This document shows positions 16,275 through 63,663 of a stretch of 64,000 bases of DNA, in pieces. Numbering within the stretch: the stretch's first letter is position 1; each line of letters starts with the position of its first letter. Under the pieces are notes generated by a model. The model was not told where the DNA came from. It did no database searches and was given only the letters and a program-made list of their open reading frames with translations. Where the stretch lies: the NCBI GenBank assembly GCA_963817615.1, contig CAWFPH010000002.1:1305959-1369958 (forward strand), in the 5' to 3' direction. A program made the translations under genes and the position numbers. The DNA is from an uncultured Gammaproteobacteria bacterium. Lineage in GTDB: Bacteria; Pseudomonadota; Gammaproteobacteria; Steroidobacterales; Rariloculaceae.

Positions 16275-16667
16275 ATGGCAACCCAATGGCGCGTGCGACT
16301 CGCGCTGATGGCGGCGTTCGCGGCGATGGCCGGGTCGGCTGCGGCGCACCACTCGGTCGCGGGCGAGTTCGACCAAAGCAAGCGCGCGACTTTGACCGGC
16401 ACGATATCCAAGATCGACTGGATCAACCCGCACATTTACGTTTACCTCGACGTGCCGGACGAGCACGGGCAGGTCACGACTTGGCGGCTCGAGACATTGC
16501 CGACGGCGATGATGCGCAAGGCCGGGCTCAATCCTGAGCTGCTGATGGCCGGCGGCAGCAATGTCTCCGCCAAGACGATGCCCGCGCGCGACGGCACGAA
16601 GCACCTAGGTTATTTGATCAAGCTCACCTACGAGGACGGTCACTACTACCAGCTCGCGGCCGATTGA
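16275..16667 (+). CDS. DUF6152-type secreted protein (module component A, copy 1)
   Basis: Signal peptide ending AAA/HHSVAGEFD, TGTISKIDWINPH, WRLE, MRKAG. Confidence 0.85.
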   Translation: MATQWRVRLALMAAFAAMAGSAAAHHSVAGEFDQSKRATLTGTISKIDWINPHIYVYLDVPDEHGQVTTWRLETLPTAMMRKAGLNPELLMAGGSNVSAKTMPARDGTKHLGYLIKLTYEDGHYYQLAAD

Positions 16668-16700
16668 CGCGGCGCACGAGCGGTTGAACGGGGGCGTTCC

Positions 16701-17552
16701 ATGAATTCATTCGAGAGATTCAACTTGCGAAAGGCAGCGGCTGCCGCGGCGTTGGCGCTCACGTTCGGCGCCTTCATGCCGGTCGGCGTGCAGGCTCAGT
16801 CAGGGGCGGCGGCCGTGCCGCACACCGCGGACGGCCACGTGGACTTGAACGGCATCTGGGACAACGGCGCGGGCATCGACTTCGTTCAGCCGCAGCAGCG
16901 CGGCGCATCGATCTGCGTGGTCGGCTGTAAGCCCGCGGCGCCGGCCGCGGAGACGACGGCTGCATCCGCCCCGGCGCGTGCCGCTCCGGCGCCGCCGAGC
17001 AAGCCGCGCTATCGGCCCGAGTTCGCCGCGAAGGTGGCCGACCTTGCGCAGCGTCAGGTCGAGACCGACCCGGTGCTGCGCTGCTTCTCGCCCGGTCTGC
17101 CGCGCATCGGGCCGCCGGACCAGATCGTCCAGCAGCCGAGCCAGGTCGTGTTCCTGTACGACGACGTCACCGGCAATTATTTCCGCGTCGTGCCGACCGA
17201 CGGCAAGCCGCGGCCGAACGACGGCGAGCCGAAATTCCTGGGCGACGCGATCGGCCACTGGGAAGGCGACACGCTCGTCGTCGAGACGACGAACTTCAAT
17301 GATCAAACCTGGCTCACCGACGACGGCGCGTTCCACACGAAGGATCTGCGGGTCGTCGAGCGACTCAAGCGCAACGGCGACACGCTCGAGTGGGACGCTA
17401 CGGCGTACGACCCGGCCGTGCTCACTGAGCCTTGGCGGGTGACGACGCGGATCGCGCAGCGCACGGACGAGAAGGTGGCGGAAGCCGCACCGTGCCTCGA
17501 GCGCGATCTATCGCACATCGTCGACGGCTCGCATCACCCGAACGCACGCTGA
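16701..17552 (+). CDS. secreted DUF6152-partner protein (module component B, copy 1)
   Basis: Signal peptide, DLNGIW, DPVLRCFSPGLPR, GDAIGHWEGDTLVVETTNF, VVERL, DPAVLTEPW, C-terminal PCLE. Confidence 0.85.
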   Translation: MNSFERFNLRKAAAAAALALTFGAFMPVGVQAQSGAAAVPHTADGHVDLNGIWDNGAGIDFVQPQQRGASICVVGCKPAAPAAETTAASAPARAAPAPPSKPRYRPEFAAKVADLAQRQVETDPVLRCFSPGLPRIGPPDQIVQQPSQVVFLYDDVTGNYFRVVPTDGKPRPNDGEPKFLGDAIGHWEGDTLVVETTNFNDQTWLTDDGAFHTKDLRVVERLKRNGDTLEWDATAYDPAVLTEPWRVTTRIAQRTDEKVAEAAPCLERDLSHIVDGSHHPNAR

Positions 17553-17584
17553 CGGCGCAAGACGCGCGGCGCGGTGGAGCCGCG

Positions 17585-18859
17585 TCATTGCGCGCCGATC
17601 GCGCTGAAGCGCAGATCGAAGCGCAGTTGCAGCTGTGTCTCCGTCGCGCGCGTCGGTAGCCCTGAGTACGCCCACGCCGGGTGCCACGAGCGAATCCGCA
17701 GCCATTCGGCGCCGAGGGACCACCGCGCGGAATGTTCGTAGCGGTAGGCGAGCGTCCACGCGCGGCCGGAGTCCGCGTTGTCGTCGCCCGGTACGCGGTC
17801 GCGGTCGGTGATGTCGAACGCGTCGCGGCGCAGCGTCACGCGGTGCGCTCCGAACGGTCTCGTCGCGAGCAGGTAAGCGGCGCGGTAGTCCGCGTCGACC
17901 GCGTGAGCGGGCCCGAGCAAGGGCCCCATCGCCGTGTCGCCGCGCATCGATTGCGCAAGCAAGCCGACCTGCGCCGGCAGCGCGAGCTCGAGCCCGAGCT
18001 GCTGGAAGCGCGTGTGCCAGGCGTACTGCCCGTCCTCGAGCTGCGTTGGATCGCCGCGATTGTCGTAGTGCGCGAGCCTGAGCTCCGCACGGCGCGCATA
18101 GCGCCACTCGGCGCCCGCATAGAATCCCGCGCGGCCGTCGATCTCGCGCCAAGGGGCGACATACGGAGCCTGCTGCGCAAACATCGCGGCCGGTTGCAGC
18201 AGCGGCAGCGGCGCAAGCGGCAGCTCGTCGCCGAGACGGCTCTGCCGATCGTGCAGCGACCAGCCGCGCCATGCGAGCAACGAGCCCGCGGGATCGTTGC
18301 CGACGAATCCGGCCGCGTGCACGCTGAATTGCTGAATCGCCCTGGCGCCGATTCGCTGGGTTCGGGACCACTCGGCGCCGAGCGGCCGGATCTCCTCGCC
18401 GAGCCATGTGTTCACCGCCGAGGCCGACAACGTGAGTGGCGTGCTCCAGGCGGGCCCGAAATTCTCGAGCGACCAAGGCCCTTGAAAGAATCCGACCTTC
18501 AACCGCTGGCGGCCGGGTCGAACCGGTCGCGCGCGCCATTCCACGTACGCCTCGGTCAGGCCGAGGCCGCTCGACGCGTCGTCCACCGCATCCACGGTCG
18601 CGTGCACGCTCCAGGCGTCGCCGAGTCGCCCGGCGTATTCGCCGTACCAGCGCGAGGCGGTGAGCATGCGGTCGTCGGCGGAGCGGCGGAGCCTGCCGAC
18701 GCCGCCGTCGACCCAGCTTGGTAGATCGGTCGCCGCGGACGCGAGACCGAGCTCCAGCCCGATCGTCCAGCGATGAGCGTCGGAGGTGCGATCAGCGGCC
18801 GCGGCGCCGCCGGAGGCGGCGGTCAATACGACTGCGACGATGATCGACCGCCTCGTCAT
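17585..18859 (-). CDS. predicted outer-membrane beta-barrel protein, unknown function
   Basis: Signal peptide, alternating-residue strands, GLTEAYVEWR, SAVNTWLGEEIR, NDPAGSLLAWRGWSLHDRQ, YDNRGDP, terminal QLQLRFDLRF. Confidence 0.72.
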   Translation of the reverse strand: MTRRSIIVAVVLTAASGGAAAADRTSDAHRWTIGLELGLASAATDLPSWVDGGVGRLRRSADDRMLTASRWYGEYAGRLGDAWSVHATVDAVDDASSGLGLTEAYVEWRARPVRPGRQRLKVGFFQGPWSLENFGPAWSTPLTLSASAVNTWLGEEIRPLGAEWSRTQRIGARAIQQFSVHAAGFVGNDPAGSLLAWRGWSLHDRQSRLGDELPLAPLPLLQPAAMFAQQAPYVAPWREIDGRAGFYAGAEWRYARRAELRLAHYDNRGDPTQLEDGQYAWHTRFQQLGLELALPAQVGLLAQSMRGDTAMGPLLGPAHAVDADYRAAYLLATRPFGAHRVTLRRDAFDITDRDRVPGDDNADSGRAWTLAYRYEHSARWSLGAEWLRIRSWHPAWAYSGLPTRATETQLQLRFDLRFSAIGAQ

Positions 18860-18979
18860 GAGCGCGTCTCGTGCGAGCGAAACCACGGGCGAGGCTAATG
18901 CGCGCCTCCTGCGATGTCCGTGACTCGTCGCACAGCTCGAGGCGAGCCGCGAGCGGCAGTCCGCCGGTCGAGCGGCCGG

Positions 18980-20809
<1,830 letters not shown>

Positions 20810-20832
20810 GACGCGGGGGGCGGGGCCGAGAA

Positions 20833-20845
20833 GGCGCGCATTATA
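20833..20845 (-). promoter_or_regulatory. typA promoter: -10 TATAAT with GC-rich discriminator
   Basis: Minus strand TATAAT-GCGCGCC about 30 nt upstream of ATG, typical of stringently controlled sigma70 promoters. -35 weak. Confidence 0.6.
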
Positions 20846-20910
20846 CGGCTGCGCGTGCCAGAAGCGAGTGCGTGTGCCGACAGCGGCCGGCGGCGCGGGC
20901 TCCAGGCCGG

Positions 20911-21753
20911 TTAGTTGATCGCGATGTCGACGACGTCCGCCACCGGCTCGTACCCGATGCGCCGGTAAATCGCGTTGGACGCGTCGTTCGCGAGATCCGC
21001 GTATAGAAAGCAGCTGCGCCGGCCGCTCTCGAGAAGCTGGCGGCTGAGCGCCGCCACGGCCGTCGTCGCGTAGCCGCGGCCTCGGTGGCGGGGCGGCGTA
21101 TAGACCGCCGCGATGCCGGTGGAGCTCGGCGAATCGCGTACCGCGCCGAGCATGCAGCGCGGCTCGCCGTCCACCCAAAAGTAGAGACGCTCGTCGCGGA
21201 TCAGCCGCTCGGCGGCCGCCGTGGTGACGTGGCGCACGCCCGTATCCTTGATGAAGCCCGCGACCCAGGCGCGCGCGACCGGCAGGTCGGCCGGCAGTGC
21301 CCGCCGTAACGCGCCGGCCGCGGGAGCCCCCGGCCACTGCACGGCCGAGAGGGAATAGAGCCGCTGGCGGTGCAGCACGTAGCGATCGCCGCCGAAGCGC
21401 TCGGTCCACGCAGCGGCGACCGACGTCGCAGCGCGCTCGGGGCCGCTGACGCCCGGCAGCGACCGGTAGACCTCGTGCAGGCTTCGGACGAGCGGCTCCG
21501 CGGCGGCCTCCGGCAGCGAAGTGACGCCCAAGTGATGGGGCGGCGTGCGAAACGCGCAACCGACGATTGGTTGCCGTGCGGCGTCGTCCTCGATCGTTGC
21601 CCAGTAGAGCGGTGGCCGGTAGTGCAATGCCCCCGCCAGCACCTCGTTCGCGACACCGAGCAACAAGCCGTGCTCGCGCTCGGTGCGCGTGAGCCAGGGC
21701 CCGGCGCGCTCGAGGAACGCATGCACATCGGCGTGAAGGCGGACGTCGAGCAT
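20911..21753 (-). CDS. GNAT family N-acetyltransferase (C-terminal FR47-like domain)
   Basis: [13 protein letters not shown] acetyl-CoA motif and [20 protein letters not shown]. Confidence 0.9.
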
Positions 21754-21837
21754 CCCTCAAGTGTAACCGCCCGACGGCGGAACCGACGTCGCAGGGCGAG
21801 GACCAAAATGCTGCGGAGTCGAGCCAAGGAGGACGGC

Positions 21838-22224
21838 ATGCCACGAAACAGTGACCTCGTAGTGACATTCCTGAACGCGTTCATGTCGGGCGATACCGAG
21901 ACGGCCGAACGGCTCGTCGGCGACGACTTCTCGTTTCGAGCGTCGTTGCGCGAAGGGGTTGGCGACCGAGCAGCCTATTTCGCGGGCGCAAAGGCCAAGG
22001 CGAAGTACATCGAGGATTTTCGCGTGCTCCGGCAGTGGGAGGACGGCGACGACGTGTCCACGCTCTATGAGCTCGATATCCGGACGCCGCAAGGCTCGGC
22101 GACCGTGCCGATGAGCGAGTGGCATACCGTGCGCGACGGCAAGATCGGGTCGACGTTCATGGTGTTCGACGGCGACGCGAAAGCCGTGCACCTGATGCGC
22201 GACGCGCTGCGCGACCGCAGTTGA
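21838..22224 (+). CDS. SnoaL-like / NTF2-fold protein
   Basis: AAGGAGG RBS. FLNAFMSGD...LVGDDFSF...EDGDDV...EWHTVRDGKI...FD. Confidence 0.82.
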   Translation: MPRNSDLVVTFLNAFMSGDTETAERLVGDDFSFRASLREGVGDRAAYFAGAKAKAKYIEDFRVLRQWEDGDDVSTLYELDIRTPQGSATVPMSEWHTVRDGKIGSTFMVFDGDAKAVHLMRDALRDRS

Positions 22225-22272
22225 GCGTCGCGTTCCGGTCGCGCGCTCGCGCACGGGCGTCCGCGCAATCGG

Positions 22273-23340
22273 CTACAGCACTGCGCGATTACGCACGAAC
22301 TGCGAGACGATCCACTTCTCGCCCGCGCGCGGGGAGCGACCCGCGTGCAGCGTGCGCTCGTCCGCGCGGCCACCGCGCGCGTTGACGAAGTAGAGCCCTT
22401 CGCCGCGGCGGCCCTTGTGCTCGATGCCGAGCCGCGGGAACGCCGTCTCGCCGCCGCCATAGTCGTCGTTCAGATAGACCAGGAAGGTCACGATCCTGTC
22501 GCCGCGCTGCGCAAGATCGTCGGCATAGCTCGGGATGTTGGGATCGATGAAATCGAAGTGGTCGGTGATCTCCTCGCCCTCGTCGTAGTGGAGCACCGTG
22601 ATGGCCTCGAATTGCCGCAGCGGCACGCCGAGGCATGCGGACATCTTGAGCTGGGTGAGCACCAGCACGAGATCGGTTTCGAGCAGGTTGAACGGTGCAG
22701 CCGTATTCGTGCGCGTTGGCCGCACCGTGACTTCCTTGCTCAGCGCCTCGTAGACCAGCGCGCGCGACAGCCGCCCGCGCGCGCGGTCGATCAGCCAGCG
22801 GCAGGTCGCTTCGCTCACGAACTCGGGATACGAACGGATCAGCGGGCTGGTGCTCAGGTCGAGCGAGGCGGGCGCGCTGCGCCAGGCGTCGAGGTCGATA
22901 CGTCGGGCGACTTGCCGCCAATCGTCTGCGCCGGTCGCCGCCGCCTCCGCCTCCACCTCCGCGAGCACCTGCAGCTGCGCGCGCGCACCCGGCCAGCCTC
23001 GTTCGGCCGCGGCGATGAGGCTCGCGAGCGCATCGTCGAGCGTGTGCCGCGCGCTCGCGCCGACTGCGTAGAGCACGGCGAGCAGCGCGGCTGCCTCTGC
23101 GCCGCCGCGCGCGCTCGCGTCGCCGATCAGCCCCGCACCATCCTTCGGTAGGCACGGCGCGCGGTCGCCGACGAGCAGCCGCTTGCCGAGCCGCGTTGTC
23201 GCTTCGACGTCCTTCTTCCGAGCGCCCGCGGCGAGATGCTCGATGGCCTCGGTGTGCCGGCCGGCCGCGTCGCTTTGCTCGGCGCGCTCGACGTCTGCGG
23301 ATAGGGGCCGGCCGATCGAGGCGGGATCTTGGCAGGACAT
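22273..23340 (-). CDS. prolyl-4-hydroxylase-like 2OG-Fe(II) oxygenase with N-terminal Sel1/TPR-like helices
   Basis: RTN, VLHY, HFD (HxD), RIVTFLVYLNDDYGGGETAFP, TLHAG, GEKW (P4H-type Lys). Confidence 0.88.
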   Translation of the reverse strand: MSCQDPASIGRPLSADVERAEQSDAAGRHTEAIEHLAAGARKKDVEATTRLGKRLLVGDRAPCLPKDGAGLIGDASARGGAEAAALLAVLYAVGASARHTLDDALASLIAAAERGWPGARAQLQVLAEVEAEAAATGADDWRQVARRIDLDAWRSAPASLDLSTSPLIRSYPEFVSEATCRWLIDRARGRLSRALVYEALSKEVTVRPTRTNTAAPFNLLETDLVLVLTQLKMSACLGVPLRQFEAITVLHYDEGEEITDHFDFIDPNIPSYADDLAQRGDRIVTFLVYLNDDYGGGETAFPRLGIEHKGRRGEGLYFVNARGGRADERTLHAGRSPRAGEKWIVSQFVRNRAVL

Positions 23341-23455
23341 TTCGCTGCGTCCTTCGGCGGTGCGCGCTGCAAATCGGGATTATGGGCCAAACGCGTGCGA
23401 TCGACCTACCACCCGCCGCGCCCTCGGTGGAACATGCGCGCAACGCGGACGCCCG

Positions 23456-23489: not shown

Positions 23490-23514
23490 GTTGGACTCGA
23501 GCTCAGTAAGCGTT

Positions 23515-32666: not shown

Positions 32667-33842
32667 TCAGCGTTTCCAGAGCCGCCGGCTCGCGAGCGCT
32701 GCGCCCTCGGCCAGCGCGTCGAGCTTCGCCCACACGACGTCGACCTGCTGGCGCGCCAGCCCCGCGCCCTGGGCGAAACCGCAGTCGCTGCTCGCCATCA
32801 CGTTCTCGCGGCCGACGAGATTCGCGAGCCGCACGAGCCGCTGTGCGATCAGCTCCGGATGCTCGACGTGCGTGATCGCATGGCTGATGCAGCCCGGCAG
32901 CAAGATTTTGCCGTCCGGCAGCTGCGTCGTTTCCCACACCGTCCACTCGTGCTCGTGGCGCGGATTCGCGGCTTCGATCGAGTAGCCCTGGGCATGGATC
33001 GTGAGCAACAGATCCGCGATCTCGGCGAGCGGCACGTCGCTCACGTGCGGCCCCGTCCAGCTGCCCCAGCACAAGTGATAGCGCACGCGATCCTCGGGGA
33101 TGCCGCGCAACGCGTGGTTCAGAGCCGCGATGTTGAGCTCGACCCACTTCCGATAGTCGCGGCCGCTGTCCACGACTGCGTCGTGGAAATTCGTGAGGAT
33201 CGCGTCGTCGACCTGCAGCAGTAGCCCGGCGTCGACGATGATTCGGTACTCCTCGTGCTGCGCGTCGGCGAGCGCGAACAAGAACGCCTCTTCGGACTGG
33301 TAGTACTCGTTCGCGTAGCTCGGTGCGATGCTGCACGGCGCAGCTACGGGCAGGAACGCATCCTGCACCGCTCGACCGCGGATCGCCGCCGCGAGATTGG
33401 CCGCGTCGCGCCGCATCGCCGCGCGGCCTTCGTCGGTGTACCCGATCGGGCCGACGCACACCCATTGCTTCAGCGGAAAGGTACGAGCCATCCTGTTGCG
33501 CAGGGCACCGAGACTTTCCTCGTAGTAGTGGCGGAATCGCTCGCGGTCGTGGCCGAGAAACTTCGTGAAGTCGGGGTCGTCGCGCAGCTCGAAGCCCGTG
33601 AGCCGGTTCAGGGAATAGCCGGTCCACGACACCTTGCCGAACTCGCCGTCGCTCACGACGTCGACTCCGTGCGCTACCTGGTCGCCGACGACGTTTGCAA
33701 CCTCGTCGCGGAGGGTCTTCTCGTACGCCGCCGTGTCGACCGTTTCACCGGCTGCGAGCGCCGGACCGTAGGACAGGACGCTCTGCGGGCGAATCAGGCT
33801 GCCGACGTGGGTCGTGAGGATACGCTCGGTGCTGCGTTGCAT
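32667..33842 (-). CDS. cobalamin-independent methionine synthase II family (single-barrel, Zn thiol alkyl/methyltransferase)
   Basis: RILTTHVGSL, VSDGEFGK, LQVDD, YHLCWGS (HxC), IEAANPRHEHEW, SSDCGF. Confidence 0.9.
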   Translation of the reverse strand: MQRSTERILTTHVGSLIRPQSVLSYGPALAAGETVDTAAYEKTLRDEVANVVGDQVAHGVDVVSDGEFGKVSWTGYSLNRLTGFELRDDPDFTKFLGHDRERFRHYYEESLGALRNRMARTFPLKQWVCVGPIGYTDEGRAAMRRDAANLAAAIRGRAVQDAFLPVAAPCSIAPSYANEYYQSEEAFLFALADAQHEEYRIIVDAGLLLQVDDAILTNFHDAVVDSGRDYRKWVELNIAALNHALRGIPEDRVRYHLCWGSWTGPHVSDVPLAEIADLLLTIHAQGYSIEAANPRHEHEWTVWETTQLPDGKILLPGCISHAITHVEHPELIAQRLVRLANLVGRENVMASSDCGFAQGAGLARQQVDVVWAKLDALAEGAALASRRLWKR

Positions 33843-34265
33843 GGCCTTCCCTCTCTCGGTCTTCGTCTCGAATCGCCGCGGCGTGCAATCGCCGCACTCG
33901 GCAAGGCGTTGCGCGTCGTGGTCGACGCTCGGCGCGAGCGATCCTACACCGCCGCCGTCGCGCGCTCGACGCGTACTTGCGGCGAGCACGACCCCTGGGC
34001 GACGATGCTCGCTCGCCACGATTCGGCGGGGAGTGGGCCATTCGAACGACATCGGTCGTTTCCGCAATAGCACTGGCGGCACTCGCCAACGTCGGCTTCG
34101 CGCGGCTCACCGGCATCACGCCCGGGATCATCGGCACGAGCCGCCGCTCGAAGGCGCGCCGCGCCGACACGCCCGCGAAGCGGCACGGGTGATGGTCGTG
34201 CCGCCGCCGCGGGGCGGGCACCGCGCGAGAGAATCGGCTCGTCGCGCGTCTTAGGGGGAGGCGCC

Positions 34266-35363
34266 ATGCCTAGTTCGCATCGTCGTGTTGCCGGCATCGC
34301 AGCCGGCGCGATCTTCGGCCTGCTCGGTCCCGCGCTTGCGCTCGCGCATCACTCGACGGCCGAGTACGACGCGAAGACGATCGTGGAGGCGCGCGGTGAG
34401 GTCGTCGCGGTGCTCTGGCGAAATCCCCACGTGCGCTTTCAAGTCAGCACGAAAAAGATCGACGGCAACGATCGGCTCTGGGAGATCGAGAGCGCCGATC
34501 TCACGCGGCTCGACCGCGCGGGTTTGCCGCGCGACATCTTGAAGGTCGGCGACGTCGTCACGTTCGCCGGCAATCCATCGAAGCGAACCGAGCGCCGCCT
34601 GTACGTGACCAACTTGCTGGTTCCCGACGGCCGCGAGATCCTGCTGCGCGGCAACGTCCAGGCGCGCTGGGCGCCCGACCGCGTCGTGAACACCGATCCC
34701 GCACCGCAGCCGCGCGCGACCGCAGCGGCCGCCGCATCGAGCGCGCCGCAGGACGGCTTCCTCGATAGAGTCTTCGTGCCGATGCGCGCGGGCAAGGCGC
34801 CGGCGTGGGTCGCCCAACCGCCGCTCACGGCCGCGGCTCGCGAGAAGCAAGCGGCCTACGACGAGGTCGTCGACGATCCGGTGCTCGGCTGCGTTTCGCC
34901 CGGCATGCCGCGCGTCATGCTGCGCAGCGGCCCATATGCGATCCGATTCATCCGGCGCGGCCCCGACCTCGTGCTGCAGAACGAGTGGTTCGAGATCGAT
35001 CGGCTGATCCACATGGACGGCCGGGAGCCGGCCGCCGGCGCGCCGTACACGCCGCTCGGCTATTCGGTAGGCCGTTGGGACGGCGCCGCGCTCGTCGTCA
35101 CGACCACTCACATCGATTGGCCGTACTTCGAGCTCTACGGGCTCGTGGGCGTCCCGCAGAGCCGTGCGATGCGCATCGTGGAGCGGTTCACGCCGAGCGA
35201 CGGCGGCGCCACCCTGCAATACGACTTCGCCGCGACCGACCCGGCCGCGTTCACGGAGACGGTCGCGTATGACGACTACGCGACGTTCCGCTGGCAGCCC
35301 GCGCTCGAGTTCCTGCCGTACGACTGCATCGAGACGGAGCGCAAGGCGCGAAGTCCGCGCTGA
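34266..35363 (+). CDS. DUF6152 plus partner-domain fusion protein (module A+B fused)
   Basis: ALA/HHSTAEYD...WRNPH...WEIE...RAGL, then DDPVLGCVSPGMPR, GYSVGRWDGAALVVTT, IVERF, DPAAFTE, YDCIE. Confidence 0.86.
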   Translation: MPSSHRRVAGIAAGAIFGLLGPALALAHHSTAEYDAKTIVEARGEVVAVLWRNPHVRFQVSTKKIDGNDRLWEIESADLTRLDRAGLPRDILKVGDVVTFAGNPSKRTERRLYVTNLLVPDGREILLRGNVQARWAPDRVVNTDPAPQPRATAAAAASSAPQDGFLDRVFVPMRAGKAPAWVAQPPLTAAAREKQAAYDEVVDDPVLGCVSPGMPRVMLRSGPYAIRFIRRGPDLVLQNEWFEIDRLIHMDGREPAAGAPYTPLGYSVGRWDGAALVVTTTHIDWPYFELYGLVGVPQSRAMRIVERFTPSDGGATLQYDFAATDPAAFTETVAYDDYATFRWQPALEFLPYDCIETERKARSPR

Positions 35364-55220: not shown

Positions 55221-57887
55221 ATGCATGCGCGCTGCATCAGCTCGCCGCGATATCCGGCGCTTCGCTTGCTGGTTGCGCTTGCGGCACTCGGCACGGGCGG
55301 TTGCGAGCCGCAGCTCGCCAAGACGGATTGCCCGCCGGCAGTCGGCCAACAGCGGCCGTGGCTCGATGGGGCTCGTGCCCCGCGGTGCCGCGCCGCGGAC
55401 GTCCTCGCGACGCTCACGACGCTCGACGCGAAGCTCGCGTTTCTCGAAGGCGGCGGCTTCGGCTCCTCGACCGGAATGACGCAGCTCGGCCTCGATACGG
55501 GCCGTACGCAGGACGGCCCCGCGGGCTTCAACGGCGGCACGGCATGGCCCACGCCGCTCGCGCTGGCGGCGAGCTACGATCCCGAGCTCGCCGAGCGCTT
55601 CGGCGTTGCGCTCGGGCGCGAGTTCCACGACTCCGGCCGCAGCGGCATTCTCGGACCCGCGATGGACACGACTCGCACATGGCATTTCGGCCGTTCGACC
55701 GAGAGCTACGGCGAGGATCCGTATCTCGCGGCGCGCATGGCTGCACGCGAGGTCGCCGGTATCCAATCGCAGCACGTGCTCACGACGATCAAGCACTACG
55801 CGGCCTATACGCAGGAGCAAGGACGGCTCGGCGACAACCCGACCGGCGAGCGTCCGGCCGTCGATCAGGTCGTGTCGGCGCGTGCGCTGCACGAGATTTA
55901 CCTGCGCTCGTTTCACGCAGCGGTCGTCGAGGGCGGCGCGGGCGGCGTGATGTGCTCGTTCCCGCAAATCAACGGCACCTACGCGTGCGAGCACGCCGAG
56001 CTGCTCGACGCCGTCTTGAAGCGCGGCTGGGGCTTCGACGGCGCGGTGTTCCCCGACTTCCCGGTGGCGCAGCGCAGCATCGCGAACGCGTTCGCCGCCG
56101 GCCTCGATGCGGGCGTGATGGAGCCGGCCGCGGGCGGCGCCGCGGACGCCGAGGGCGCGGGCCGCTTCGCGGGTGACATCGGTCTGCGCGAGGCCGTCGC
56201 CCGCGGCGTCGTTCCGGAGCACCGCATCGACGATCTCGTGCTGCGCCGGCTCGTGCCGGGATTTCGGATAGGCACGTTCGACCATCCGGCGAAAGCCGTG
56301 CGTGACGAGCCGAGCACGCCCGAGGCGCGCGCGCTCGCGGCCGCGATGGCCGAGGCGGGCGCCGTGCTGCTCAAGAACGACGGCGTATTGCCGCTCGAGC
56401 GCTCGGTGCGGCGCATCGCGCTGATCGGCCCGCAGGCCGGCGTCGACCCCGTGGTGGTCGAGCAGGGGTCGGCCTACGTCGAGCCGCGGCACCTCGTGAC
56501 CGCGTTCGACGGTTTGCAGGCGCGCGCGCCGGACGGGGTTCGCATCGACACGGCGCTCGGCGGCCCCGACTTGCACCCATTGCCGAGCCCGGCAGAGGAG
56601 TCGTTCACGGCGCCCGACGGCGCGCCGGGGTTTCGCGCCGAATACTTCGCAAGCCCCGACCTCCGGCTGCCCAGCCCCAGCTTCACGAGCCGCACGGAGC
56701 GTGCGGTCGACGTGAGCGGCGTGCCGGACGTGGCGGGCTTGCCCGCCGATAAGCAATGGGCGGTGCGCTACACGAGCCGCTTCACCGCGCGTGCGAGCGG
56801 CCGGCATCGGTTCACGCTGGACGGTTCCGGCTCGGCCGAGCTTTTCATCGACGGCAAGCTCGAGGATGCGTTCTACAACTCCGATTTCGGCGCAATCGCA
56901 TATGCGAGCGTCGATCTCGACGCGGGGCGGGCGGTCGACGTCGAGATCCGCTACTCGCCGCGCACCACGCTCGGCACCGCGCCGCGCAGGCAGTTCGCAA
57001 CGGTGCTCGGCGTCGCGCTGCGCTTGGGCTACGCGCCGCCCGACGACGGCCTCGCGCGTGCCGTGCAGGCGGCGGCAGACGCCGACGTCGCGGTCGTGCT
57101 CGCGGGGCACATCGTCGGCGAAGGGATGGATCGTACGCATCTCGCGTTGCCGGCCGATCAGGACCGGTTGATCGCCGCGGTCGCGCGCGCGAATCCGCAC
57201 ACGGTCGTCGTGCTCGTCACGGGCGGCGCGGTCGCGATGCCGTGGCTCGACGCGGTCGCGGGCGTGCTCGAGCTCTGGCTGCCGGGCGACGCCTACGGTA
57301 CCGCGCTTGCCGCGCTGCTGTACGGCGACGCGGATCCGGGCGGACGCTTGCCGGTCACGTTTCCGGCGGACGAGACGCAGGGGCCCGGCACGACGCAGCG
57401 CACGTATCCGGGCGAGCTCTCGCCGAGCGGCGCGCTGCAGCGAGTGCGCTACGACGAGGGGCTTGCGATCGGCTATCGCTATTGGGACGCGCACGCGCAG
57501 CGGCCGCTTTTCCCTTTCGGCCATGGGCTTTCGTACGCGACGTTTGCAATCGAGGGTTTGAGCGCGGAGGCGACGCCGAGCGGCGGCGCGCAGGTCCGAG
57601 CGCGCGTCTCCAATGCCTCGGCGCGCGCCGGCACGGAAGTGCTGCAAGTCTACGTGGGCTTCCCGGCCGCGTCGGGGGAGCCGCCGCGCCAGCTCAAAGG
57701 CATCGCGAAGGTCGCGCTCGGCCCGGGCGAGCGCCGCGAGGTCACGATCGCGCTCGATCGCGCCGCGTTCGAGATCTGGGACGAGCGTGCCGCTCGCTGG
57801 ACCGTGCCGCCCGGCTCGTTCGACCTCATGCTCGCGCGCTCGTCGCGGGATGTCGTTCGAACGTTCGCGCTGACGCCGCTGCGCTGA
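55221..57887 (+). CDS. glycoside hydrolase family 3 with PA14 and Fn3-like domains, probable lipoprotein
   Basis: TGGC lipobox-like, DGPAG, ESYGEDP, IKHY, VFPDF nucleophile, VLLKNDG, EGMDR, YDEG-x-x-IGYR, PLFPFGHGLSY. Confidence 0.9.
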   Translation: MHARCISSPRYPALRLLVALAALGTGGCEPQLAKTDCPPAVGQQRPWLDGARAPRCRAADVLATLTTLDAKLAFLEGGGFGSSTGMTQLGLDTGRTQDGPAGFNGGTAWPTPLALAASYDPELAERFGVALGREFHDSGRSGILGPAMDTTRTWHFGRSTESYGEDPYLAARMAAREVAGIQSQHVLTTIKHYAAYTQEQGRLGDNPTGERPAVDQVVSARALHEIYLRSFHAAVVEGGAGGVMCSFPQINGTYACEHAELLDAVLKRGWGFDGAVFPDFPVAQRSIANAFAAGLDAGVMEPAAGGAADAEGAGRFAGDIGLREAVARGVVPEHRIDDLVLRRLVPGFRIGTFDHPAKAVRDEPSTPEARALAAAMAEAGAVLLKNDGVLPLERSVRRIALIGPQAGVDPVVVEQGSAYVEPRHLVTAFDGLQARAPDGVRIDTALGGPDLHPLPSPAEESFTAPDGAPGFRAEYFASPDLRLPSPSFTSRTERAVDVSGVPDVAGLPADKQWAVRYTSRFTARASGRHRFTLDGSGSAELFIDGKLEDAFYNSDFGAIAYASVDLDAGRAVDVEIRYSPRTTLGTAPRRQFATVLGVALRLGYAPPDDGLARAVQAAADADVAVVLAGHIVGEGMDRTHLALPADQDRLIAAVARANPHTVVVLVTGGAVAMPWLDAVAGVLELWLPGDAYGTALAALLYGDADPGGRLPVTFPADETQGPGTTQRTYPGELSPSGALQRVRYDEGLAIGYRYWDAHAQRPLFPFGHGLSYATFAIEGLSAEATPSGGAQVRARVSNASARAGTEVLQVYVGFPAASGEPPRQLKGIAKVALGPGERREVTIALDRAAFEIWDERAARWTVPPGSFDLMLARSSRDVVRTFALTPLR

Positions 57888-57902
57888 AGCGTGCTCCGCG
57901 AG

Positions 57903-59546
57903 TTAGGCGCGCGCGAAGGTCTCGGCGGAGGCGAGCGGCCAATAGAGCGAATACACGTTGTGCGGCCAGGGACTGCGCCCGCCGATCGCTTCCAGCAGCT
58001 CGCCGGGCTCGAGCAGCGGCAACAGGTTCGAGAGCAGGCGCACCTCGCCGTGCAGGGAGCGGCGCACGATGTGCGTCGGCCGAAACTCGTTCGGGTGCGA
58101 CAGGCCGGCAGCCTGCGTGAGCTCGCGCAACGCGTCGAGCGTGTGCCGGTGAAATTGGTACACGCGCTCCTGCTTGTTCGTCACCGCGAGAGCCTGCTGC
58201 CGCAGCGGGTCCTGCGTGGCGATGCCGGTGGGGCAGTTGCCGGTGTGACACGTTTGCGCCTGCAGGCAACCGAGCGCGAACATGAAGCCGCGCGCCGAGT
58301 TGCACCAGTCAGCGCCCAGCGCCAGCACGCGCGCGACGTCGAACGCGCTCACGATCTTGCCCGCCGCGCCGATCTTGATGCGGCCGCGCAGATTGAGTCC
58401 CACGAGCGTGTTGTGCACGAGCACCAACGCTTCTTGGAGCGGCGTGCCCACGTGGTCGGCGAACTCGAGCGGCGCTGCGCCCGTGCCGCCTTCGGAGCCG
58501 TCGACCACCACGAAATCCGGCGTCAAATCGGTCTCGAGCATCGCCTTGCAAATCGCAAACCACTCCCACGGGTGGCCGATACAGAGCTTGAAGCCGGTCG
58601 GCTTGCCGCCCGAGAGCCGGCGCAGCCGCTCGACGAACGTGAGCAACTCGACCGGCGTGGTGAACGCGCTGTGCCGCGCGGGGCTCACACAATCGACGCC
58701 GGCCGGAACGCCGCGCGCGGCCGCGATCTCCTCCGTGACCTTCGGGCCGGGCAGCACGCCGCCATGACCCGGCTTCGCGCCCTGGCTCAGCTTGATCTCG
58801 ATGACCTTCACCTGACCGTCGCTCGCGTTCGCGACGAAGCGCTCCTCGCTGAAGCGGCCGTTCGCGTCGCGGCAGCCGAAGTAGCCGGATGCGATCTCCC
58901 AAATCAGATCGCCGCCGTGCACGCGGTGGTAGCGGCTGATCGAGCCTTCGCCGGTGTCGTGGGCGAAGGCGCCCTTCTTCGCGCCGCCATTGAGCGCGAG
59001 GATCGCGTTCGCCGAGAGCGCGCCGAAGCTCATCGCGGAGATGTTGAAGATGCTGGCGTCGTAGGGCTGGGTGCAGCTCTCGCTCGAGCCGATCGTCGTG
59101 CGAAAGTCCGCCGACGCGATCTCGGTCGGCATCAGCGAATGGTTGATCCACTCGTAGCCCGCGGCCTGCAGATCGAGCTGCGTGCCGAACGGCCGCTTGT
59201 CGGGCTCGCCCTTCGCGCGCTGATAGACGATCGAGCGCTGCACGCGGGAGAACGGCGTGCGCTCGTTGTCGCTCTCGATGAAGTACTGCCGAATCTCCGG
59301 CCGCACGAACTCGAGCAGGAAGCGCAGATGCCCGATCACCGGATAGTTGCGCAGGATCGAGTGCTGGCGTTGCAGCGAATCCCGCGCGCCGAGACCGACG
59401 AGGCCCAAGCACACGATCATCGCGATGCCGCCGCTCTGCGTCTGCGACCAGTACAGCCCGAACGCGGCCGCGAGCAGGAAGCTCAGGGCCCAGGCGCTGT
59501 AGCGAACCGGGAAATAGCGATCGATCTTGCCAAGCCAGGCGTGCAC
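57903..59546 (-). CDS. FMN-binding glutamate synthase family protein (stand-alone, membrane-anchored)
   Basis: Two N-terminal TMs, RNYPVIGH, ISAMSFGALS, HDTGEG, EIKLSQGAKPGHGG, DGSEGGTGAAP, GCLQAQTCHTGNCP. Confidence 0.93.
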   Translation of the reverse strand: MHAWLGKIDRYFPVRYSAWALSFLLAAAFGLYWSQTQSGGIAMIVCLGLVGLGARDSLQRQHSILRNYPVIGHLRFLLEFVRPEIRQYFIESDNERTPFSRVQRSIVYQRAKGEPDKRPFGTQLDLQAAGYEWINHSLMPTEIASADFRTTIGSSESCTQPYDASIFNISAMSFGALSANAILALNGGAKKGAFAHDTGEGSISRYHRVHGGDLIWEIASGYFGCRDANGRFSEERFVANASDGQVKVIEIKLSQGAKPGHGGVLPGPKVTEEIAAARGVPAGVDCVSPARHSAFTTPVELLTFVERLRRLSGGKPTGFKLCIGHPWEWFAICKAMLETDLTPDFVVVDGSEGGTGAAPLEFADHVGTPLQEALVLVHNTLVGLNLRGRIKIGAAGKIVSAFDVARVLALGADWCNSARGFMFALGCLQAQTCHTGNCPTGIATQDPLRQQALAVTNKQERVYQFHRHTLDALRELTQAAGLSHPNEFRPTHIVRRSLHGEVRLLSNLLPLLEPGELLEAIGGRSPWPHNVYSLYWPLASAETFARA

Positions 59547-59689
59547 GCCACTCCCTCGCCGCCCCGCGACGTGTGCCTATCGTCGGCTCGGACGCCCGTA
59601 TCTTGAGGAAGAGCGTCGCAAAACGCGAATGGCGGCGGCTTCGCACGCTCGGGCGGCGCAACGGCAAAGGCCGCCGCGCCGCCGGCAGA

Positions 59690-61039
59690 TCAGCGCGAAT
59701 AGGAGATGCGGTAGATCACGTTGCCGTCGTCGTCGCCGAGCAAGAGCGAGCCGTCGTTCGTCTCGACGATCTCCGACGGCCGCGCCCACGGCTTGCCGTC
59801 CGGGCCGATGAAGCCGACCAGGAAGTCGACGTATTGGCCGGTCGGCTTGCCGTTCTCGATCGGTACCCGGACGACCTTGTGGCCCGTGCGGCTCGAGCGG
59901 TTCCACGATCCATGGAATACCGCGAACGCGTCGCCGACGTATTCCGACGGGAACGCCGAGCTGCCCGACTTCGCGGTATAGAACGTAAAGCCGACGGATG
60001 CGGAGTGCGCTTGGTAGGGCACGTCGGGCGTGATCGTCTTGCCCGCTAGGTCCGGACGCTCGCCTTTGTGCCGCGGGTCCTCGTGGTTGCCCATGTAGTA
60101 CCAGGGCCAGCCGTAGAACCCGCCTTCCTTCACGCTCGTCGAATAGTCCGGCACGAGGTTGTCGCCGAGCGCGTCGCGCTCGTTGACCGTGCACCAAAGA
60201 TCGCCCGTGCCGGGCTGCACCGCCAGCGCGACGCAATTGCGGATGCCGGTCGCGTACGGCTTGCCGGGCTGGTTCGAGCCGACGTCGAACACGAGCACGT
60301 CGGCGCGATTCGTCTCGCCGCCCCAGGCGGCGCCGAGGCCGTGCTCGGCCTCCCACGATTTGATCTCGGCCGGGCTCTTCTTAGGCATGTCCTCGGCCAC
60401 GTTCGAGCCGGAGCCGACCGAGACGAACATACGCTTGCCGTCGGGCGAGAACGCGAGGTCGCGCGTGTAGTGGCCCATGCCGGAGGACGGCGCGAGCTGC
60501 TGGACGACGACCTCGGGATCGGCCGACGCCTTGTTGTCGCCGACCTTGTACTTGAACCGCACGACGCGGTTGTTCTCCGCGACGTACAGCCACTGCGGGT
60601 TGTCACCGGCCGGGTAGAACTGCAGCCCGAACGGTCGGTCGAGCCCCTGCGTGAAGACGCTCGAGCTCGCGACGCTCGTGCCGTCCGCCGACGGATGCAG
60701 CACCTTGACGCGGCCCGCTTGCGTCTCGGACAGGAAGATGTCGCCGTTCGGCGCGATGCGCATGATGCGCGGCTTCTCGACGTCGCGCGTGAATACCGCG
60801 AGCTTGAACCCGGGCGGTAGCTTCACCTGCGCATCGTCGGGTTTCGGAACGATCCGCGGAAAATCCGCCGACGACTGCGATGGCGCGGGCAGCGCCGCAA
60901 CGTCGATGCGATGCTCGCGGCCCGGTGCGTCGTTTTTCCAATTCTGCGCGTTGTCGCTCGCCGCTTGCGCCCCCGCCCCTTCCGAGAAGAAAACCGCTGC
61001 CGCCAGCGTAACGCCGGCGATGAGAAATCGAGTCGCCAT
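59690..61039 (-). CDS. secreted glucose/sorbosone dehydrogenase family (PQQ-type) protein
   Basis: Signal peptide, LPPGFK, APNGD, PFGL, GHYTR, SVGSGSN, GIRN, NERDALGDNLVPDY, YGWP, HGSWNR, DDDGNVIYRI. Confidence 0.9.
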   Translation of the reverse strand: MATRFLIAGVTLAAAVFFSEGAGAQAASDNAQNWKNDAPGREHRIDVAALPAPSQSSADFPRIVPKPDDAQVKLPPGFKLAVFTRDVEKPRIMRIAPNGDIFLSETQAGRVKVLHPSADGTSVASSSVFTQGLDRPFGLQFYPAGDNPQWLYVAENNRVVRFKYKVGDNKASADPEVVVQQLAPSSGMGHYTRDLAFSPDGKRMFVSVGSGSNVAEDMPKKSPAEIKSWEAEHGLGAAWGGETNRADVLVFDVGSNQPGKPYATGIRNCVALAVQPGTGDLWCTVNERDALGDNLVPDYSTSVKEGGFYGWPWYYMGNHEDPRHKGERPDLAGKTITPDVPYQAHSASVGFTFYTAKSGSSAFPSEYVGDAFAVFHGSWNRSSRTGHKVVRVPIENGKPTGQYVDFLVGFIGPDGKPWARPSEIVETNDGSLLLGDDDGNVIYRISYSR

Positions 61040-61176
61040 GTCGTGGCCCCCCTGTCGTCGTTCTGTTCGGTACATTCTGACATATCCGTTGCGGCGAGAT
61101 GGGACCGTCGCGGCCGCTCAGGGTGCCGCTTCGGCAGCCGCGCTCACGCCGCCGCAGTGCCGCTGCGCCGCGCCGC

Positions 61177-62166
61177 TCAGGGCACCGCCGCCTCGACGAG
61201 ACCCGTGAAGCCGAGCGGCGCCGCTCGGAGGAATTGGAAGCCCGCCGCGTCCACCACGTTGCGCCACTGCGCTTCGGTGCGCTCGCGACCCGCCGCGAAC
61301 ACCAGCATCTCGATGTCGAGGTCGATCGGAAAGCCGCCGAGCGCGTTCTCGTCGACGACTGCTTCGATCAGAAGGAGCCTGGCACCGCTCGGCGCGCTCG
61401 CCTTCAGATTCCGCAGAATCTTCACGGCATCTGCGTCCGACCAATCGTGGATCACGGTCATCATCACGTACAGATCGCAGGCCGGAATCGGATCCTTGAA
61501 GAAGTCGCCGCCGAAGTAGGTGATGCGCGGATGGGCGGCGGCCTTCGCTTGCGCGATCACCTCCGGCAGCTCGAACAGCACGCCCTTCGCGGCCGGCGCC
61601 GCGTTCAAGATGGCGCCGAGCAGATGCCCCATGCCGCCGCCGATGTCGCCGATCGTCTTGAAGCCGCTGAAGTCATAGGCGCCGAGCGCGGGGCCGATCT
61701 GCGCGAACGATTTGCCGACCATCGCCTCGTTGAAGATGCGGCCGTCGTCGGGATGCGTGCGCAAGTGCTCGAACAGGCCGCCCGGCACCACCGCATCGGT
61801 CGCCGACTCGCCGGTTTTCAGGCTATGCGCGAGATCGCGGAAGACGTCCCAATGGAGCGGGAGTCCCATCATGCGCGCGAGCGAGCGCATCGAGGCCGGG
61901 TCGTTGCTGCGCAGCAGGCGCGAGGCCGGGTTGTGCAAGAAGCGGCCGTTGCGCAACGCGAAAACGCCGTGATTCGCGAGCGCGCGCAGGATCCTGTGCA
62001 GCGCATCGGCGTTGGTGCCGGTCTTCGCGGCGAGCGCGGCGGCGGTCTGCGGCTCGTCCCCGAGCGCATCGGCGATGCCGAAGTCGGCGACCGCGTGCAG
62101 ACAGCGCGACGCCCAATAAGCCGTGGACAAGCCGAGAATCGTTTCGGCGGGATGGCGTTCGGTCAT
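61177..62166 (-). CDS. O-methyltransferase, Methyltransf_2 type with dimerisation domain
   Basis: LHRILRAL, FNEAM, YDFSGF, DIGGGMG, ELPEV, GDFF, IHDWSD, ERT. Confidence 0.92.
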   Translation of the reverse strand: MTERHPAETILGLSTAYWASRCLHAVADFGIADALGDEPQTAAALAAKTGTNADALHRILRALANHGVFALRNGRFLHNPASRLLRSNDPASMRSLARMMGLPLHWDVFRDLAHSLKTGESATDAVVPGGLFEHLRTHPDDGRIFNEAMVGKSFAQIGPALGAYDFSGFKTIGDIGGGMGHLLGAILNAAPAAKGVLFELPEVIAQAKAAAHPRITYFGGDFFKDPIPACDLYVMMTVIHDWSDADAVKILRNLKASAPSGARLLLIEAVVDENALGGFPIDLDIEMLVFAAGRERTEAQWRNVVDAAGFQFLRAAPLGFTGLVEAAVP

Positions 62167-62363
62167 TTCTTCAATCTCCCAGAGTTTTTTTGAGTTTTCT
62201 TGAGCCGGCGGCCGGGACGAAACGCGTAGTATGCAACGAGCTGGGTCTCGTTCGACCGACGGTCTCGCCGGCGGTCCGATTATTCGTGCTCCGGCTCGGT
62301 TGCTCGGTTCGGGCGGTATCATTGTCGAACGTCATCGCGCCGAACATTTCGGGGGAAAAAGTG

Positions 62364-63164
62364 ATGCAAAACGTACGGGTGCTTTGCAAAGTCGTCGCTT
62401 CTGCCGCCGCGATCGTCGCGTGCGCGACGCTGTCGGCCGCGGAGCCCGAGCATCCGGATCTCACGGGCGTCTGGACGATGCACCGCGAGCCGGGGCAGCG
62501 CGGCTTTTCGGGATTCGGCGGGCCGCGGGCCGATCTGCCGCTCACCGAGGAAGGTCGGCGGCGGCTCGAGGAATACCGCAAGCTGCTCGGTCCGGAGAAC
62601 GCGAACCCGGCCGCTTACTGCGTGGACTACGGCATGCCGACGATGATGGAGCAGCCCGGAGCCTACCCGCTCGAGTTCATTCAGAAGCCCGACCAAATCA
62701 CCATCATCTACGAGGTCGAGAGTGAGATGCGGCGCATCTATCTCGGCGATCGCCATCTGCCGTCCGACCGCCGGTTGCCGAGCCGCGACGGCTATTCCGA
62801 AGGCCATTGGGAAGGCAACACCCTGGTCGTGAAGACCACGGACCTCGAGGACGGCCAGGATCAGAACGCCCATCCGCACAGTGATCAGGCGACGATCGAG
62901 GAGCGGTTCACGCTCGGCAAGGACGACAGCGGCAAGAAGCTCATCAGTTACGAGGCGTCGCTCATCGATCCCGTCTACTACACCGCGCCCGTGAAGATCT
63001 CGCGCAAGTGGGAGCCGTTGCCGAACGGCTTCATCATTCCGTATCACTGCCCGGACGAGTTTTGGTACGCGCTGCTCGACCTGCGGCGCAAGCAGTTGAA
63101 GGAAGGCAAGCCCGTCACCGCGCGCATGAGCGACGTCTACAAGGCGCGCGAAGCGAAGGAATGA
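62364..63164 (+). CDS. secreted DUF6152-partner protein (module component B)
   Basis: Signal peptide, PDLTGVW, PLT, NPAAYCVDYGMP, RRIYL, GYSEGHWEGNTLVVKT, HSD, EERF, DPVYYTAP, YHC. Confidence 0.85.
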   Translation: MQNVRVLCKVVASAAAIVACATLSAAEPEHPDLTGVWTMHREPGQRGFSGFGGPRADLPLTEEGRRRLEEYRKLLGPENANPAAYCVDYGMPTMMEQPGAYPLEFIQKPDQITIIYEVESEMRRIYLGDRHLPSDRRLPSRDGYSEGHWEGNTLVVKTTDLEDGQDQNAHPHSDQATIEERFTLGKDDSGKKLISYEASLIDPVYYTAPVKISRKWEPLPNGFIIPYHCPDEFWYALLDLRRKQLKEGKPVTARMSDVYKAREAKE

Positions 63165-63222
63165 TTCGAAGGTTCAACCCGCGTGCGCGGATAGCTGCAC
63201 GCGCGAAGCGAGGAGATTGAAA

Positions 63223-63663
63223 ATGTCCATCATGAGAAAGTTCGTCGTCGCAGTGAGCGCCCCGGCGCTCGTGCTTTGCGCCATGGCGGCGTCGGCGCAT
63301 CATTCCGCCGCGCAGTTCGACTTCAGCAAGAAGGTCACGATCCACGGCATCGTCAAGGAGTTCAACGTGATCAACCCGCACACCGAGGCGGTGGTCGAGG
63401 TGACGGACGACAAGGGCACGCGCGACGTTTCGTTCGAAGGCCACAGCGCGAGCAACTTTTATCGCGCGGGCTATACGCGCGACATGGTGCACGCGGGCGA
63501 CAAGATCGACATATTGATCGCGCCGCGCCACGACGGCCAGGACGGCGGCTTCATTCAAGCGTTCACGGTGAACGGCCGCACGGTCGGGTTCGGCGGGCTC
63601 TCGCCGACCGGCCAACCCCTCGAGAAGGGCGGGGCATCCGGCACGGCCACGTCGTCGAACTGA
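63223..63663 (+). CDS. DUF6152-type secreted protein (module component A)
   Basis: AGGAG RBS. ASA/HHSAAQFD, HGIVKEF-x-x-INPH, FEG, RAGY, GDKI, PRHDG. Confidence 0.86.
   Translation: MSIMRKFVVAVSAPALVLCAMAASAHHSAAQFDFSKKVTIHGIVKEFNVINPHTEAVVEVTDDKGTRDVSFEGHSASNFYRAGYTRDMVHAGDKIDILIAPRHDGQDGGFIQAFTVNGRTVGFGGLSPTGQPLEKGGASGTATSSN

Follow-up and report, generated by a model that had tools for sequence, protein, structure and literature searches.

Paired secreted proteins, one of the DUF6152 family and one with a predicted barrel, as a candidate two-part periplasmic system expanded in a gammaproteobacterial genome

Three times within 64,000 nucleotides of the genome of an uncultured gammaproteobacterium of the Rariloculaceae, two secreted proteins are encoded together, once in the order A-B, once as a single fused chain and once in the order B-A. 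This stretch (assembly GCA_963817615.1, contig CAWFPH010000002.1, C2:1305959-1369958) is referred to here as the window. What is such a pair for, and how far does it extend beyond the window? A sequence-only reading of the window had proposed a recurrent two-part module for which no characterised function was known. In this report, A is identified as a member of the DUF6152 family, B appears to belong to no described family, and the idea that the two form a functional pair is supported by several lines of evidence. A cognate periplasmic A-B complex that has diversified for different small ligands is quite probable. That the complex is a metal-dependent and probably oxidative enzyme is proposed tentatively, on the basis of sequence patterns and structural models.

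The five open reading frames of the three loci were all found on the forward strand, where the sequence-only reading had placed them:

16275..16667 (+): A1, secreted DUF6152 protein of 130 amino acids (open reading frame; PF19649 match, E 1.1e-23), with the NPH motif at residues 51-53 and the conserved Glu at residue 73
16275-16346 (+): leader of A1, residues 1-24
16347-16352 (+): start of mature A1, His25-His26
16701..17552 (+): B1, secreted protein of 283 amino acids (open reading frame without Pfam or NCBIfam family), predicted as helical segments with DP-x3-C128, followed by a 10-stranded barrel and, close to the C-terminus, C265
34266..35363 (+): fused AB, 365 amino acids (open reading frame; PF19649 match on residues 24-109, E 1e-18), predicted as an A domain to about residue 125, a linker and a B barrel at about residues 160-345, with invariant cysteines C209 and C354 (invariant columns among 40 fused proteins)
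34347-34352 (+): His28-His29 of the fused AB, following a leader of residues 1-27
62364..63164 (+): B3, secreted protein of 266 amino acids counted from the ATG at 62364 (open reading frame; alignment with B1 and the fusion); the open frame reaches back to a TTG at 62190, and the leader holds a lipobox-like IVAC
63217..63663 (+): A3, secreted DUF6152 protein of 148 amino acids (open reading frame; PF19649 match, E 3e-22)
63298-63303 (+): His28-His29 of A3, following a leader of residues 1-27

The copies had been described as highly diverged, and the B copies do share no more than 29-37% identity in the alignment, yet they are homologous by BLASTP (E 2e-11 for B1 against B3, E 7e-15 for B1 against the fusion). 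The curated cut-off places A1, A3 and the N-terminal part of the fusion in DUF6152 (PF19649), with scores of 83.6, 79.0 and 67.6 bits, respectively, against a Pfam gathering threshold of 27. The motifs reported earlier for A (HH, D, G, NPH, E and R-x-G) and for B ([DN]P-x3-C-x3-G-x-P, G-x3-G-x-W-[ED]-G-x-x-LVV-x-T, ER, DP and a terminal Cys) are present in the window copies and are kept across the paralogues of the genome. Each separately encoded part has a basic and then hydrophobic start, in agreement with the leaders first assigned; in the window these were judged by eye and by a simple rule rather than by a dedicated signal-peptide predictor.

Are these proteins already known under another name? 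DUF6152 is a family without a described function or structure, and a search of the main text of papers found none that uses its name. The pairing with B, the fold, the processed His-His end and the copy numbers described below are not recorded for DUF6152 in the sources searched. Sequence searches of solved structures with A gave chance-level matches only (best E 0.023). For B, a Pfam scan of B1 and B3 at E<=0.1 gave no family and a profile search of solved structures gave chance-level matches only (best E 0.0058); an NCBIfam scan of the five window proteins returned zero matches, and a search of the ESM Atlas with B1 returned unnamed clusters only. By these searches, B would be a family of its own. 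A DUF2147 identity for B was considered, as 4 of 120 listed B1 relatives carry this label at the Joint Genome Institute (JGI), and was rejected: PF09917 has no match among the five window proteins at E<=0.1 or anywhere in the genome at E<=1. The literature and solved-structure searches found no characterised relative, so the earlier statement that no function is known stands. The A-B system would thus lie outside the known kinds of system, with its folds taken from models and its function inferred.

The sequence-only reading had also suggested that the three copies belong to a large paralogous family, which turned out to be an understatement. Profiles built from the three window copies were searched against 39,425 six-frame open reading frames of the genome (5,298,476 bases in 7 contigs) at E<=1e-3. 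The search yielded 79 A and 109 B domains (about 168 open reading frames of the 5.3-Mb genome), and Pfam's own PF19649 model also found 79 A domains. The domains fall in 114 loci, namely 19 fused A=B, 19 B-A, 16 A-B, 38 solo B, 12 solo A and a few arrays (for example A-B-B and B-B-A). With 114 loci in 5.298 Mb, about 1.4 are expected per 64 kb, and the claim that three copies in the window amount to a high density was not borne out. Identity among in-genome paralogues has a median of 27-30%, and orthologues in other species are 58-77% (B1) and 71-81% (fusion) identical. This difference (58-81% against 27-30%) marks the paralogues as old and individually maintained.

The expansion is shared by relatives of the window's genome. 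All 18 other species sampled from its genus carry 52-113 DUF6152 matches and at least 79 B matches each, the number of B candidates scored being capped at 86. Within the family, matches at E<=1e-30 were obtained in at least 79 of the 84 other genomes and in all 14 genera, where the first look gave 6-253 candidates per genome; 51 candidates were scored per genome, and these match counts are lower bounds. In the rest of the order, sampled by one genome from each of 12 other families, a single weak A was found in one genome and B in none. Across the class, A was found in 10 of 400 other genomes at 1-3 copies each (9 of 399 without the genome G325), and B in at least 4 of 399 (6 candidates scored per genome). 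Two of the ten A-bearing class genomes hold pairs: G390 encodes one fused AB and one A-B pair, and in G412 there is a B-A pair whose B, beside its A, was missed by the class-wide search. At L138:4651-8346 (- strand) in G390, a solo DUF6152 gene also stands between adenylate/guanylate cyclase and HEAT-repeat genes on the same strand, a context unlike all others.

The closest related loci are in Steroidobacteraceae, Candidatus Rariloculaceae and metagenome-assembled genomes (MAGs) of Gammaproteobacteria, and more distant B loci are in Acidobacteriota (Bryobacterales, Vicinamibacterales, Terriglobia, Solibacteraceae). DUF6152 copies number 53 and 4 in two Bryobacterales genomes, 61 in a Terriglobia genome, 70 in a Vicinamibacterales genome and 151 in a 5.9-Mb gammaproteobacterial chromosome. 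In both Steroidobacteraceae-like Gammaproteobacteria and Acidobacteriota, genomes with 50-150 copies therefore occur. For B1, 3089 relatives were found at E<=0.001 among 8000 candidates scored, and the B family forms 14,433 (E<=1e-3), 8,115 (E<=1e-10) or 342 (E<=1e-30) clusters at 50% identity, with tandem B-B and fused AB proteins among them. The A and/or B matches of three related MAG loci (L074, L063, L052) are split over several frames, perhaps by frameshifts or assembly errors.

Do A and B belong together? The 60 clean A-B pairs of the genome are divided almost evenly among B-A (21), fused (20) and A-B (19) arrangements. In other genomes, A adjoins the searched B in 29 of 29 loci of Pseudomonadota as against 21 of 50 loci of Acidobacteriota. 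The partners have also diverged together. Distances between A domains correlate with those between their partner B domains (Mantel r 0.456; 2000 permutations gave a mean of 0, a standard deviation of 0.038 and a maximum of 0.126), and the nearest paralogue is the same for A and B in 17 of the 60 pairs. This correlation indicates that the pairs have been inherited and diversified as units. On the B tree, the fused or split state changed at least 5 times, at least 3 of which are forced by well-supported branches, and the order of split pairs changed at least 5-9 times. The architecture labels are nonetheless clustered on the tree, with 13 changes in total compared with a mean of about 29 when they are shuffled.

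A complex of mature A1 and mature B1 was predicted with an interface score (ipSAE) of 0.77, the best of 3 controls reaching 0.02. In a calibration that applies roughly, as own alignments were used here, 58 of 80 complexes of known structure attained this mark, as did 2 of 110 mismatched pairs. Three runs agreed in at least 84% of contacts, with partner confidence (predicted local distance difference test, pLDDT) of at least 87. The predicted interface involves residues 30-31, 48-53, 55, 73, 75-85 and 121-130 of A1 and residues 57-76, 119-128, 154-158 and 260-268 of B1. It takes in the NPH motif, E73, the R-x-G helix and the C-terminal strand of A, as well as the C128 and C265 segments of B. 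Residues 57-76 of B1 form an insert that pairs with the C-terminal strand of A1 in the model; this insert, which carries the extra cysteines C71 and C75, is found in B1 and its orthologues and is absent from B3 and the fusion. Taken together, the recurrence in both orders and as a fusion, the repeated changes of fusion state, the correlated divergence and the modelled complex support a functional pair.

The sequence-only reading had gone further and proposed an obligate heterodimer. The pairing, the fusion and the indifference to gene order hold, and binding is predicted; the pairing is not obligate. Only 63 of the 109 B domains have an A within 400 bp on the same strand, and 46 do not. The 29 Acidobacteriota loci in which A does not adjoin B comprise 9 with A elsewhere in the 3-kb flank, 19 without A and 1 outside the counting window. 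Conversely, in five genomes of 95-100% completeness with one DUF6152 gene each, scoring of every candidate gave no B at E<=0.01. A and B thus occur apart in many loci and in some genomes.

What kind of protein is A? In 79 of 79 A domains of the genome, His-His directly follows an AxA-type signal-peptidase site, the cleavage site being placed by the -3/-1 rule and not by a dedicated predictor or protein data. The pair lies 24-26 residues upstream of the PH of the NPH motif in 75 of the 79, and in these regular copies it is followed by Ser (60), Gly (9), Ala (5) or Pro (1). The same His-His pattern was seen in 65 of 67 A open reading frames of other genomes, both exceptions representing one frameshifted locus. 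Among 33 orthologues of A1, H25, H26, N51, P52 and H53 are invariant. Among the paralogues of the genome, H26, P52, H53 and G93 are kept in 73 of 73, G42 and G84 in 72, N51 in 69 and E73 in 65. This invariant His-His/NPH/Glu pattern suggests a metal site in A. In an AlphaFold2 (AF2) model of the fused protein (40 sequences: 20 paralogues and 20 orthologues), which reached a pLDDT of 84.6 and a predicted template-modelling score (pTM) of 0.78, the A part has an oligonucleotide/oligosaccharide-binding (OB) fold. Residues 37-123 of this model align with a single-stranded-DNA-binding protein (SSB) by VIA-align (Z 9.1, root-mean-square deviation 2.5 A over 79 residues), and Foldseek matched the A part to N-domains of lysyl-tRNA synthetases and to SSBs (E 6.5e-5 to 1e-3). 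A is therefore likely, as modelled, to be a five-stranded OB fold. The likeness to these proteins probably extends to the fold only, a function with nucleic acids being improbable for a secreted protein.

And what is B? Its paralogues keep G150 and E188 in 96 of 97, R130 in 95, D207 in 90, W156 in 89 and C93 in 84, and 108 of the 109 B domains of the genome have a Cys in the C-terminal tail. Solo and paired B domains retain the same residues, except for the Arg after E188, which is found in 27 of 46 solo and 55 of 63 paired copies. A leader was assigned by the simple rule to 79 of 89 stand-alone B open reading frames, and 6 of the 89 have a lipobox-like motif. Folded alone by AF2, B1 reached a pLDDT of 82.3, and ten strands were counted in the B barrel of both this and the fused model. 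The best structural match of the B1 model is cellular retinol-binding protein (CRBP) IV (Z 8.9, 3.4 A, 117 residues), followed by nanoKAZ (8.8), bile-acid-binding protein (8.3), LBP-8 (8.3), SAHS (8.0), UnaG (7.8) and nitrobindin (7.1); the B part of the fused model matches SAHS (8.6) and nanoKAZ (8.3). On these models, B is likely, and not certainly, a 10-stranded barrel of the fatty-acid-binding-protein (FABP) class set behind short helices. Like FABP, CRBP, bile-acid-binding protein, UnaG and nitrobindin, with which it aligns over 92-117 residues at Z 7-8.9 (slightly above background), B would have such a barrel. Unlike FABP-like calycins, it is secreted, about twice as long, has N-terminal helices that carry one of its two conserved cysteines, and possesses its own invariant set of R, E-R, D-P and G-x-W-x-G. 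No lipocalin or FABP family of Pfam matches the window proteins at E<=0.1.

Two subgroups of solo B carry N-terminal extensions of 200-340 residues after the leader, with the motifs PPPYTP or VGRGWP, for example:

L119 (C1:198340-200085), L121, L125, L127 and L135: extended solo B of 578-611 amino acids
L117, L126, L129 and L131-L134: extended solo B of 460-497 amino acids

These are the closest in-genome paralogues of B1 (31-38% identity). A Pfam scan found no domain in 10 of 10 long solo-B proteins, and for the extension of one of them the ESM Atlas gave no more than weak leads to LolA-like families.

How might such a pair work? In the mechanism proposed here, A and B would be the two halves of a periplasmic heterodimer, made in some copies as a single fused chain. 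The free amino terminus of A, together with its histidines and glutamate, may form a metal site of the histidine-brace or 2/3-His-1-carboxylate type. The two cysteines of B may form a disulfide that staples the helices to the barrel, and the barrel may hold an organic molecule that is small and mostly hydrophobic, in the way of its structural neighbours. In the predicted complex, the conserved NPH/Glu/R-x-G face of A sits on the two Cys-bearing segments of B, and the pair would act on the molecule held in the barrel, most likely oxidatively. The paralogues, each conserved between species, would then differ in substrate. An inner-membrane protein of the DUF6644 type, encoded beside A in some genomes, may tie the system to the membrane, as a route for electrons or metal.

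The comparison that this mechanism invites is with the histidine brace. Brace proteins have immunoglobulin- or cupredoxin-like folds, unlike the OB fold predicted for A. They also differ from A in that residue 2 of A is an invariant His as well and that A would work with a separate barrel subunit. In common with them, A is secreted, has His as residue 1 after predicted cleavage of the leader, and has a further invariant His. H53, the candidate second brace His, shares a predicted interface patch with residues 30-31. According to a review of the subject, every known class of brace protein is made with a leader, and removal of the leader frees the N-terminal amine to bind copper; the classes listed are lytic polysaccharide monooxygenases (LPMOs), pMMO/pAMO, X325/Bim1, CopC/PmoF1 and YcnI (PMC10952591). 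None of these listed classes is known to be an OB-fold protein. A would have a carboxylate nearby, as do the CopC, YcnI and X325 variants of the brace described there (PMC10952591). A Pfam scan at E<=0.1 found no LPMO, CopC or YcnI/DUF1775 match in the five window proteins, and a literature search found no paper joining the terms histidine brace and OB-fold. In its most specific form, the proposal would be that DUF6152 provides a new OB-fold, brace-type copper or iron centre which, with a substrate-presenting calycin barrel, makes up an unrecognised family of periplasmic oxygenases or oxidases, supplied with electrons by DUF6644 and forming, with 50-150 paralogues per genome that differ in substrate, an arsenal with a role like that of P450s, by which abundant Gammaproteobacteria and Acidobacteriota of soil would attack complex organic matter. 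This specific form is unlikely.

Several observations weigh against an enzyme built from the two parts. The score of the complex is the predictor's own confidence, and the modelled contact rests partly on the insert of the B1 group, which has no counterpart in B3 or the fusion. In the model of the fused protein, for which the leader was included, the pLDDT of the N-terminal residues is below 50. The fold scores (Z 8-9) are slightly above the background stated for the tool (7-8), and Foldseek gave no match for B alone at E<=0.001 (best 1.4e-3). B keeps its invariant residues with or without an adjacent A, which, with so many solo copies, argues for a role of B independent of A, and the invariant polar set of B could be structural rather than catalytic. 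The near-invariant Glu of A resembles the copper-carrier braces (CopC, YcnI) more closely than the catalytic LPMOs. This Glu and the autonomy of B call for caution on catalysis.

The three units of the window stand alone. A1-B1 is flanked by a divergent TetR gene and a convergent gene for a 433-aa protein (17585-18886, - strand) that has a leader, a terminal aromatic residue like that of outer-membrane barrel proteins, and no Pfam match. The fused AB is flanked by a divergent MetE-like gene and a YCII gene, with an MmyB-like regulator adjoining, and B3-A3 adjoins a divergent O-methyltransferase gene and a GSDH-like gene. TetR as a dedicated regulator of A1-B1 was considered and rejected, since it recurs in only 2 of 80 related loci. 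The MetE-like (Meth_synt_2) gene beside the fusion is short (32667-34082, - strand), and another MetE-like gene (L139:1549-2745, - strand) lies directly downstream of the B-A pair of G412, an unrelated gammaproteobacterial genome; this may be coincidence.

Across the genome, where neighbours were counted from crude gene calls, the 114 loci have 70 tight operon partners, 54 of which are singletons, and the commonest is a pyrroloquinoline quinone (PQQ) dehydrogenase (5). The families that recur up to 3 genes away are PQQ quinohaemoprotein dehydrogenases, GSDH, metallo-beta-lactamase-fold proteins, carboxylesterase, tannase, amidohydrolase, SnoaL-like proteins, the major facilitator superfamily (MFS), MacB/ATP-binding-cassette (ABC)/HlyD and PSD/PSCyt cytochrome proteins. 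Periplasmic redox and hydrolytic enzymes are enriched at this distance; PQQ quinohaemoprotein dehydrogenases, for instance, lie within 3 genes of an A/B locus in 13 of 34 cases, compared with 12.7% of called genes. The genome has about 34-37 paralogues of these dehydrogenases, each with a PQQ propeller and a cytochrome c domain (for example L020, C1:231384-233777). The neighbourhood is one of periplasmic catabolism of small organic compounds, with no fixed partner required.

The main rival to the metal-dependent enzyme is a non-catalytic carrier or solute receptor. According to this explanation, the pair binds small hydrophobic or carboxylated molecules and hands them on to periplasmic enzymes or transporters, and it has expanded as orphan periplasmic receptor families or the odorant-binding lipocalins of animals have. 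The predicted fold of B is that of lipid, retinoid and bile-acid carriers, the paralogous family is very large with conserved orthologues, and its scattered loci, mostly without fixed enzyme partners, are often near genes for periplasmic dehydrogenases, esterases, MFS and ABC proteins. A pure carrier would, however, have no need of the processed His-His/NPH/Glu cluster, invariant in 73 of 73 paralogues, and no transporter is consistently linked to the loci. The carrier is accordingly regarded as somewhat doubtful.

Could A instead handle metal for its own sake? In this explanation, A would be a carrier of copper, zinc or nickel like CopC/YcnI or CusF that hands the metal to DUF6644, with B as an accessory. 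In four of four B-less gammaproteobacterial genomes examined (G126, G311, G149, G333), a gene on the same strand for a four-helix membrane protein of about 155 aa comes directly after A, and this protein is homologous to proteins of the DUF6644 family (PF20349) encoded in the window's genome (pairwise E 4e-8). In the latter genome such genes are mostly tandem pairs, and none lies within the window. They also flank A/B in five loci of Acidobacteriota. An alignment of 21 copies shows one invariant His, in the first helix, and a few other residues that are kept, and a literature search found no paper using the name DUF6644. The DUF6644-type genes are as follows:

C3:1323799-1324865: beside a divergent solo A
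C4:251629-252108: beside another divergent solo A
C6:10484-11458: near an A-B pair
C4:31638-32648, C3:1253536-1254475 and C3:295844-296824: further sites of the same genome beside DUF6152 genes
L140:5046-5507, L141:7091-7555 and L142:3511-3977: other loci, beside DUF6152 genes

This arrangement hints that A communicates with the inner membrane. Besides the small membrane protein of the B-less genomes, metal handling is favoured by the N-terminal His and carboxylate pattern of A, and carboxylate variants of the brace are mostly tied to copper transport (PMC10952591). It is hard to reconcile with 50-150 copies per genome, no metal-transport or metal-resistance genes recur beside the loci, and the five window proteins are unrelated in sequence to CopC, YcnI, CusF and ZinT at E<=0.1. 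Metal handling is thus rather improbable.

The weakest explanation is an envelope sensor or structural protein like NlpE, or a family of surface or adhesion proteins. NlpE (CutF) of E. coli, present in a single copy, is a lipoprotein of the outer membrane that combines a lipocalin-like with an OB domain, and cysteines are implicated in it. The same two fold types would be combined here in an envelope protein whose conserved cysteines could report redox state, but the copy number is too high, the domain order is the opposite, the parts are mostly separate genes, most copies are no lipoproteins (as the rarity of lipobox-like motifs among stand-alone B attests) and no NlpE family of Pfam matches, all of which makes this highly improbable.

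The two-part, metal-dependent enzyme is retained as a working proposal, and its meaning would reach beyond this genome. Genomes of two phyla that are widespread in soil metagenomes reach 53-151 copies of DUF6152, and the size and conservation of the family make it probable that it is central to the life of its hosts. If the pair is a metal-dependent enzyme, it would offer a new scaffold for metal centres built on an N-terminal histidine, and a large unexplored set of periplasmic catalysts for the turnover of soil carbon. Should the pair instead be a family of carriers, it would represent a new type of solute receptor in bacteria. In both cases, B merits definition as a family, and the A-B pair merits a structure.

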